From Escherichia phage vB_EcoM_PTE-Eco15: a DNA stretch of 64,000 bases. The notes beneath the pieces are model-generated. The model saw only the letters and a program-made list of their open reading frames with translations. It did no database searches and was not told the origin of the DNA. Below are positions 5,062 to 5,865 of the stretch, one piece after another; position 1 is the stretch's first letter, and each line of letters starts with the position of its first letter. The translations under genes were made by a program, and so were the position numbers. Location: the sequence record PQ352352.2; one strand, 5' to 3'.

Positions 5062-5401
5062 AATTTTGGTTTTATGTATAGGATTAATTTCATTTTCTGC
5101 TTCTGCGTTAGCAGATACATCATATACTGAAATTAGAGAATATGTAAACCGTACTGCCGCGGATTATTGCGGGAAAAATAAAGCATGCCAAGCTGAATTT
5201 GCGCAGAAATTAATATATGCATATAAAGACGGAGAAAGAGATAAATCAAGCAGATATAAAAATGATACATTGTTAAAACGATATGCTAAAAAGTGGAATA
5301 CCTTAGAATGTTCAGTTGCGGAGGAAAAAGATAAAGCCGCTTGTCATTCAATGGTTGACCGTTTGGTAGATTCTTATAATCGAGGATTGAGTACTAGATG
5401 A
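5054..5401 (+). CDS. Secreted small protein (115 aa)
   Basis: Signal peptide MTKILVLCIGLISFSASALA; four Cys in the mature part. Confidence 0.5.
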   Translation: MTKILVLCIGLISFSASALADTSYTEIREYVNRTAADYCGKNKACQAEFAQKLIYAYKDGERDKSSRYKNDTLLKRYAKKWNTLECSVAEEKDKAACHSMVDRLVDSYNRGLSTR

Positions 5402-5865
5402 TTGTAAAATATATCAAGGGCGATATTGTCGCCCTTTTCGCTGAAGGTAAAAATATTGCGCATGGATGTAATTGTTTTCACGCGATGAAAGCTGGAGTCG
5501 CAGGTCAATTAACCAAAGCTTTCCCTAAAATTTTGGAAGCTGATAAATTACAGACTGAATGGGGTGATGTAACTAAACTTGGTTCTTATTCAGTCTATGA
5601 AAAATACTTTAGGACTCATAAAGCTTACTGCTTCAATCTTTATACTCAATTTCAACCAGGGCCAAATTTTGAGTATTCCGCTTTAATGAATTGTATGTTA
5701 GAATTAAATGAGTTTGGTGAAAATAAACTGATTAAACCTACAATCTATATGCCTAGGATTGGTGCAGGCATAGGTAAAGGGAACTGGGATATTATTGAGG
5801 GGATTTTAGATACGTATTCTACTAAACTAGAAATTGTGATTGTTGATTGGGAACCGTTATTATGA
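5398..5865 (+). CDS. Macro-domain-like protein (putative ADP-ribose binding or hydrolase)
   Basis: KGDIV...IAHGCNC..AGVAGQL and PRIGAGIGKGNW resemble macro-domain motifs (GDIT..NAAN..GGGVAGAI / P.IStGiyG). Confidence 0.5.
   Translation: MIVKYIKGDIVALFAEGKNIAHGCNCFHAMKAGVAGQLTKAFPKILEADKLQTEWGDVTKLGSYSVYEKYFRTHKAYCFNLYTQFQPGPNFEYSALMNCMLELNEFGENKLIKPTIYMPRIGAGIGKGNWDIIEGILDTYSTKLEIVIVDWEPLL

Follow-up and report, generated by a model that had tools for sequence, protein, structure and literature searches.

Bacterial DarT2 modifies single-stranded TNTC DNA by ADP-ribosylating thymidine at N3, which blocks replication (PMC11825919, PMC13309987), and the partner macrodomain protein DarG (DarG2; PDB 5m3e, 5m3i, 7omu) reverses this modification. 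Phage T4 lacking both adfA and adfN was found to be still resistant to DarTG2, from which a further factor was predicted (PMC11825919). In a transposon-library screen of T4 (HIDEN-SEQ, a preprint of November 2025), tk.4 was the sole significant hit on a DarTG2 host and a clean tk.4 knockout made T4 sensitive to DarTG2; the authors gave the gene the name adfM, for anti-DarT factor Macrodomain (bioRxiv 10.1101/2025.11.20.689424). That work, done with T4 in minimal medium at 30 C and with DarTG2 supplied on a plasmid, proposes, without biochemistry, that AdfM strips ADP-ribose from DNA, stating that enzymatic removal "seems likely" (bioRxiv 10.1101/2025.11.20.689424). In the literature that we searched, we found neither a peer-reviewed version of this preprint nor enzymology or a biochemical assay of Tk.4, and the protein is neither mentioned nor tested in the CmdTAC paper, the survey of NAD and ADPr in viruses, the U-ADPr paper (PMC13036486) or the JACS paper on hydrolase specificity.

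Other erasers of DNA ADP-ribosylation offer points of comparison. PhiKZ gp104, also called AdfM (chimalliviruses; Cell Rep 2026), is like Tk.4 a stand-alone phage macrodomain acting against DarTG2, and its removal of ADP-ribose from DarT2-modified DNA has been shown biochemically; the authors state that earlier reports included no macrodomain Adf, the name having been used independently (PMC13309987). This protein is Lys-type and DarG-like (N23/K78, with a 0.72 A overlay on DarG) and is imported into the phage nucleus (PMC13309987), whereas Tk.4 is Gln-type, and PhiKZ AdfM appears to belong to a lineage separate from the Tk.4 family. AdfN (T4 gene 30.3) is an antitoxin-like eraser in T-even phages that shares the strategy of Tk.4, but its NADAR fold is unrelated, its substrate is guanine-linked ADP-ribose made by DarT1, and it has no effect on DarTG2 (PMC11825919). 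The nearest relatives by residues are SCO6735 of Streptomyces coelicolor (PDB 5e3b) and BT1257 of Bacteroides (2fg1/2afc), Gln-type members of the TARG1/ALC1-like class with the same Asn/Gln/Gly-x-Gly set as Tk.4 at about 20-25% identity. SCO6735 removes the thymidine-linked ADP-ribose that DarT places on DNA, doing so with high turnover, and protects against DarT; its Q85A mutant is dead, N27S nearly dead and G128E reduced, and a water-mediated mechanism has been proposed with Gln85 as the residue that positions the distal ribose (PMC9411070). Unlike the phage counter-defence protein Tk.4, SCO6735 is a cellular, DNA-damage-inducible protein.

We evaluated the tk.4 locus in 64,000 nucleotides of Escherichia phage vB_EcoM_PTE-Eco15 (PQ352352.2), hereafter the window. 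The features that define the locus, with the evidence for each, are as follows.

5398..5865, + strand: tk.4/adfM coding sequence, a stand-alone macrodomain of 155 aa (open reading frame, T4 Tk.4 identity, Pfam Macro, AlphaFold2 model, fold matches)
5398..5401, + strand: ATGA at which the vs stop and the tk.4 start overlap (sequence and reading-frame ends; T4 is arranged alike)
5862..5865, + strand: ATGA at which the tk.4 stop and the tk.3 start overlap (sequence; tk.3 frame starting with the 5862 ATG)
3991..4019, + strand: sigma-70-like promoter sequence, TTTACT-17-TATAAT with TG, upstream of regB (consensus scan)

The initial annotation had described a 155-aa product in the interval between tk and vs, and both the reading frame (ATG start, stop included) and the motifs it quoted are present in the translation: KGDIV at residues 7-11, IAHGCNC at 20-26, AGVAGQL at 32-38 and PRIGAGIGKGNW at 119-130. 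Upstream of this frame lies vs (5054..5401), while tk (6642..7223) lies downstream beyond tk.3, and the order regB-vs.1-vs-tk.4-tk.3...tk is common to the window and T4. The product is identical to T4 Tk.4 (NP_049723) at 151 of 155 positions (97%) and of equal length, the neighbouring tk.3, taken to start with the ATG at 5862, encodes a protein 98.6% identical to T4 Tk.3, and the 3.3 kb surrounding tk.4 is shared with hundreds of Tequatrovirus genomes, at identities reaching 98.8%. On identity over the full length together with synteny between vs and tk.3, we assign the frame as the ortholog of T4 tk.4 (adfM), and it is no chance reading frame because of its 151/155 identity to Tk.4 and because homologs occur in many clusters and phage records. 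The gene is therefore one already known, namely T4 tk.4/adfM; it occupies the same locus, its start and stop codons overlap those of its neighbours as they do in T4, and the two products differ by four substitutions, the DarTG2 phenotype having been obtained with T4 alone. A named and already annotated T4 gene had gone unrecognised in the initial annotation. We also observed that adfA lies within the window, adfN being located elsewhere in the T4 genome.

Turning to expression, the ATGA shared by vs and tk.4 is likely to couple their translation. The promoter sequence at 3991..4019, for which phage Lutter carries an annotated promoter at the matching position, is predicted to be a functional early promoter and likely serves the tightly packed regB-vs.1-vs-tk.4 run. 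Early expression of tk.4 is plausible because this tight, overlapping run of genes stands downstream of the sigma-70-like sequence before regB. We further considered an 8-bp palindrome at 5416-5436 as a regulatory RNA hairpin and rejected it (folding z-score of only -1.47; 17 of 200 shuffled sequences folded equally well). The palindrome encodes the conserved KGDIVAL motif.

Profile and structural comparisons agree on the fold. The initial annotation had called a macro domain from the resemblance of two loops, and had named the lack of a profile match together with an unrelated fold as what would speak against it; we recovered both a match and the fold. Pfam Macro (PF01661) scored 24.3 bits, above its gathering score of 22 (E = 3.2e-5), matching residues 22-132 over profile positions 2-113 of 118, and a single-sequence search with Tk.4 matched the solved macrodomains BT1257, Poa1p, SCO6735, TARG1 and DarG. 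Searching solved chains with a Tk.4 family profile of 37 members returned BT1257 (6e-22) and SCO6735 (4e-18) as the closest matches among solved macrodomains, ahead of TARG1 (7e-17), Poa1p (1e-15) and two DarG chains (1.8e-13 and 1.6e-12), such that DarG was the most distant member of the class. An AlphaFold2 model built from a 50-sequence alignment that left out the T4 Tk.4 sequence had a mean pLDDT of 90.9 and a pTM of 0.88, with strands and helices alternating as expected. This model superposed on TARG1, BT1257, Poa1p, DarG and SCO6735 as the top Foldseek matches in the PDB (probability 1.00 each, TM about 0.7-0.8), and nearly all of the top 50 PDB matches were macrodomains (TM 0.6-0.8), the exceptions being OSH55 designed-hydrolase entries. 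Taken with the profile score, the model identifies Tk.4 as a genuine macrodomain with the predicted three-layer alpha/beta/alpha fold.

To place Tk.4 within the macrodomains, we mapped its active site by hmmalign and by aligning the family profile to solved chains. For M. tuberculosis DarG, the macrodomain sequence used here was checked and is identical to 5m3i over residues 11-161, while the T. aquaticus DarG sequence was taken from the 5m3i comparison output. Conservation was counted over 249 homologs, including the best 150 of the 19,189 representatives from an exhaustive search. The mapped elements are listed below.

5455..5475, + strand: IAHGCNC, residues 20-26, with H22/G23/N25 equivalent to SCO6735 H24/V25/N27 (hmmalign)
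5485..5511, + strand: loop 1, MKAGVAGQL, residues 30-38, a GxG-type ADP-ribose-binding loop with G33 and A35 invariant (alignments)
5635..5649, + strand: NLYTQ, residues 80-84, the Q84 codon at 5647-5649 (profile-to-PDB alignment, hmmalign)
5752..5787, + strand: loop 2, PRIGAGIGKGNW, residues 119-130, a diphosphate-binding loop with G122/G124 equivalent to SCO6735 G126/G128 (alignment)

The decisive position is residue 84. NLYTQ of Tk.4 aligns with NFPTK of both DarG proteins and with LITK of TARG1, so that Q84 stands where DarG has its catalytic K80 and TARG1 its K84, and it corresponds to Q85 of SCO6735, which like BT1257 carries Gln there (NMIGQ). Counting along 5e3b, SCO6735 N27/Q85/G126/G128 pair with Tk.4 N25/Q84/G122/G124. 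Q84 is present in 248 of the 249 homologs (the remaining one has a gap), N25 in 248 and G124 in 245, and G33, A35, G122, G124 and N25 are all invariant or nearly so. Judged by these residues, the Tk.4 family is of the Gln-type SCO6735/BT1257 branch and not of the DarG type. The four substitutions relative to T4 Tk.4 are T29A, G31K, S32A and S142T, the first three of them in loop 1. Positions substituted in that loop vary among homologs (at position 31, G in 196/249 and K in 13/249), and because position 31 varies in the family we see no sign in the alignment that the K31/A29/A32 variant of the window is inactivated.

Two assignments to better-studied macrodomains were rejected on the same mapping. 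Tk.4 shares with DarG its fold, its class and, presumably, its biological target, the thymidine ADP-ribosylation made by DarT2; N22 of DarG is the same conserved Asn, and the PADLOC DarG profile does match Tk.4 (1.8e-7). DarG combines its catalytic Lys80 with a C-terminal DarT-binding domain, however, whereas Tk.4 has Gln84 and is a macrodomain alone; it scored only 24.5 bits against a cutoff of 250 for the DarG equivalog NCBIfam NF048014, matching positions 2-144 of 338, and it is flanked by vs and tk.3 instead of a darT gene. Identity with TARG1/OARD1 was likewise set aside, the Lys84/Asp125 dyad being absent and replaced by Q84 and G126, the latter aligning with the catalytic D125.

We consider it probable that Tk.4 is a stand-alone, early-made macrodomain ADP-ribosyl-glycohydrolase, the ortholog of T4 tk.4, that protects the phage from DarTG2. 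With Gln in place of Lys, SCO6735 rather than DarG is the right mechanistic model for such an activity. In the mechanism that we propose, DarT2 would place ADP-ribose on thymidine N3 in single-stranded TNTC DNA during infection and so block replication; Tk.4 would then bind the ADP-ribose through loop 1 (residues 30-38) and loop 2 (119-130), and in an active site made up of N25, Q84 and G124, the ribose would be positioned by Q84, itself held in place by N25. The thymine-ribose N-glycosidic bond would be hydrolysed, presumably independently of any lysine, which would restore thymidine and leave the DNA replicable. A caveat to this mechanism is that the DNA-binding K34 and K89 of SCO6735 are without clear equivalents in Tk.4, in which a shorter loop without an aligned lysine follows Q84, and in which A32 (S32 in T4) aligns with K34. 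The long, mobile, lysine-bearing loop may be peculiar to SCO6735 rather than a feature that defines the group. Related Gln-type and Lys-type enzymes also take ADP-ribose off uracil in RNA (PMC13036486), and because these relatives clear that linkage, a wider substrate range for Tk.4 is possible by analogy.

The best-surviving alternative, though we judge it improbable, is that Tk.4 blocks DarTG2 mainly non-catalytically, either as an inhibitor that binds DarT2 or as a shield on ADP-ribosylated DNA, much as AdfA/AdfB inhibit DarT. A dead enzyme can indeed interfere, as in vitro the SCO6735 Q85A protein is a stronger inhibitor of DarT than dead DarG or TARG1 is (PMC9411070), so that binding instead of hydrolysis may make some contribution, and a sharp allelic pattern of the sort described below might be expected of a protein-protein arms-race surface. 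Against this, the residues required for hydrolysis in SCO6735 are invariant in the roughly 250 diverse Tk.4 homologs, which argues for selection on catalysis, and the 155-aa protein is without the C-terminal domain through which DarG binds DarT, as its low score against the DarG equivalog also reflects.

A role turned inward on the phage's own transferases was suggested in part by the initial annotation, which had pointed to modA and modB in the window, to host defences and to a possible reversal of ADP-ribosylation. The two genes are indeed present (modB at 52439..53059, modA at 53059..53658), and their occurrence in the same genome is what recommends the reading that Tk.4 mainly reverses or tunes ADP-ribosylation by Alt, ModA and ModB, including RNAylation by ModB. 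Alt, ModA and ModB of T4 modify arginine. Macrodomains specific for arginine do exist, MavL being an example (in the reference list of PMC13036486), but SCO6735, TARG1 and DarG act on thymine- or uracil-linked ADPr, and TARG1 and SCO6735 also on Glu/Asp-linked ADPr (PMC9411070, PMC13036486). Moreover, tk.4 lies some 47 kb from modA/modB and is not co-transcribed with them, and the fitness effect of tk.4 in the T4 screen was specific to DarTG2 (bioRxiv 10.1101/2025.11.20.689424), which together leave this reading very unlikely. Of the reversal proposed at the outset, the host-defence context thus fits the tk.4/adfM-DarTG2 genetics, while the link to ModA/ModB is without support.

The names under which the gene is filed speak for a different chemistry. 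The T4 RefSeq entry reads "phosphatase; contains A1pp phosphatase motif", PHROG 335 likewise goes under "phosphatase", and some sources call homologs "O-acetyl-ADP-ribose deacetylase"; other product names extend to "hypothetical protein", one preprint has "putative thymidine kinase", and some phage records already say "macro domain protein". [quoted passage not shown] The yeast protein Poa1p is a neighbour of Tk.4 in structure and sequence, with its H23 matching H22, but it has Ser at the position of the invariant Q84, its S30 (the mutant site of 6lft) aligns with A29, and it is a weaker profile match than BT1257 or SCO6735; on these residue-level and score grounds we judge the phosphatase label unlikely to be right. 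T4 RNA repair (Pnk/Rnl1) is not known to generate Appr-1''-p. With the genetic phenotype pointing to defence by a DNA ADP-ribosyltransferase, it is highly doubtful that Tk.4 is an ADP-ribose-1''-phosphate phosphatase or degrades an ADP-ribose-derived metabolite or signal (O-acetyl-ADP-ribose, cyclic ADP-ribose isomers). The practical value of identifying Tk.4 as a DarTG2-countering macrodomain is a correction of the annotation of tk.4.

We then assessed how widely the gene is distributed and how it varies among close relatives. A word-indexed protein search yielded 110 homolog clusters and an exhaustive HMM search 19,189 representative clusters (E<=0.001), while of 50,697 phage records searched by tblastn, 2,731 carried a homolog, among them phages of Escherichia, Klebsiella, Salmonella, Pseudomonas, Vibrio, Acinetobacter and Aeromonas with several genome sizes. 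A "Bacilli bacterium" contig carrying a homolog, which we examined for an adjoining DarT gene, proved to be a T4-like phage contig and is uninformative on bacterial origin. Within Tequatrovirus, comparison with PP01 revealed a sharply bounded segment.

5440..5876, + strand: allele cassette of low identity to PP01, coinciding with the tk.4 reading frame and set in a backbone elsewhere 97-100% identical (sliding-window and per-gene identities)

DNA identity to PP01 falls from 100% to 47-70% at about 5440-5876 and returns to 93-98% after it, and at the protein level the figure is 54.7% for Tk.4 but 98-99.5% for RegB, Vs.1, Vs and Tk. Comparison with JK45 gives the opposite picture, with Tk.4 at 84% and the flanking proteins at 68-82%. 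All of the alleles compared retain N25, Q84 and G124. Read from these identities, tk.4 is a gene-sized allele cassette within Tequatrovirus, and gene-sized mosaicism of this kind is typical of arms-race loci. Relative to the adfM literature that we examined, the additions suggested by sequence comparison are modest, consisting of the putative SCO6735-type, lysine-independent site and this cassette.

Combining these observations, we lean slightly towards a broader reading in which Tk.4/AdfM would not be a captured DarG but a separate and very large Gln-type lineage, would remove ADP-ribose from thymine, and possibly from RNA uracil, by a lysine-independent and water-mediated route, and would be exchanged as a cassette among T-even phages. 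If so, the name "AdfM" would cover proteins that arose independently at least twice, once as Gln-type (T4-like phages) and once as Lys-type (chimalliviruses), and the exchange of cassettes would suggest that selection continues, exerted by differing DarT2-like transferases or by macrodomain-targeting host factors. T-even phages stack several countermeasures to DNA ADP-ribosylation (adfA, adfN and tk.4/adfM), and the cassette pattern marks tk.4 as an arms-race locus worth sampling when phages are matched to DarTG2 hosts.

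Comparing the DNA around tk.4 (the 155-aa macrodomain gene at 5398-5865, plus strand) between the window and phage PP01, we found that the gene is a gene-sized allele cassette spanning 5440-5876. Identity is 100% up to ~5431, lies at 47-70% throughout the tk.4 ORF, and is back at 93-98% from ~5877 onward. The same pattern is seen in the proteins, with Tk.4 being 54.7% identical to its PP01 counterpart while the flanking proteins are 98-99.5% identical, and the comparison with phage JK45 gives the inverse pattern of Tk.4 versus flank identity. Three features lie at or near the start of the gene:

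5054-5401, vs (valyl-tRNA synthetase modifier), directly upstream of tk.4 with an ATGA overlap
5416-5436, perfect palindrome AAGGGCGATATTGTCGCCCTT with an 8-bp stem, within tk.4 codons 7-13
5485-5496, loop-1 substitution site, Tk.4 residues 29-32, in the comparison with T4

Just upstream of the cassette breakpoint, a 26-nt block enclosing the palindrome is identical among the window, T4, JK45 and PP01 alleles. Because the folding z-score of this region is only -1.47, the palindrome may simply be a by-product of the conserved KGDIVAL coding motif. Relative to T4 Tk.4, the window protein carries T29A, G31K and S32A, all in the first ADP-ribose-binding loop, and only 13 of the 249 aligned homologs have a lysine as residue 31. 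One homolog (P0054) is encoded on a contig (1-8397) deposited as a ‘Bacilli bacterium’ MAG. This contig is actually a piece of a T4-like phage genome: it encodes Rnl1 RNA ligase, a Dda-like helicase, PNKP, T4 spanin and dCMP deaminase, and two genes upstream of the macrodomain gene it has one for a DUF4326 protein.

In the literature, one name has been used twice. ‘AdfM’ has been given both to T4 Tk.4 (bioRxiv 10.1101/2025.11.20.689424) and to PhiKZ gp104 (PMC13309987); the former has glutamine at the catalytic-lysine position and the latter is of the lysine type (N23/K78), such that their active-site residues make them look like separate macrodomain lineages. A T2 study (bioRxiv 10.64898/2026.06.19.733364) misannotated tk.4 as a ‘putative thymidine kinase’; the same study detected Tk.4 in the infected-cell proteome and, by RIL-seq, contacts between its mRNA and the host sRNA ArcZ. 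In minimal medium, vs was the T4 gene with the strongest depletion in HIDEN-SEQ (bioRxiv 10.1101/2025.11.20.689424), and insertions in vs or tk.4 may have polar effects between the two genes.

Beyond this locus, the window carries dmd and orthologs of T4 adfA, modB, modA and srd (identities are to T4):

45891-46070, dmd
46686-47309, plus strand, ortholog of T4 gene 61.2 (adfA), 96.6% identical
52439-53059, plus strand, modB ortholog, 95.7% identical
53059-53658, plus strand, modA ortholog, 97.5% identical
53784-54527, plus strand, srd ortholog, 100% identical

AdfA is a direct inhibitor of DarT (PMC11825919), and with its ortholog present in addition to tk.4, the window therefore encodes two anti-DarT factors out of the three known from T-even phages.
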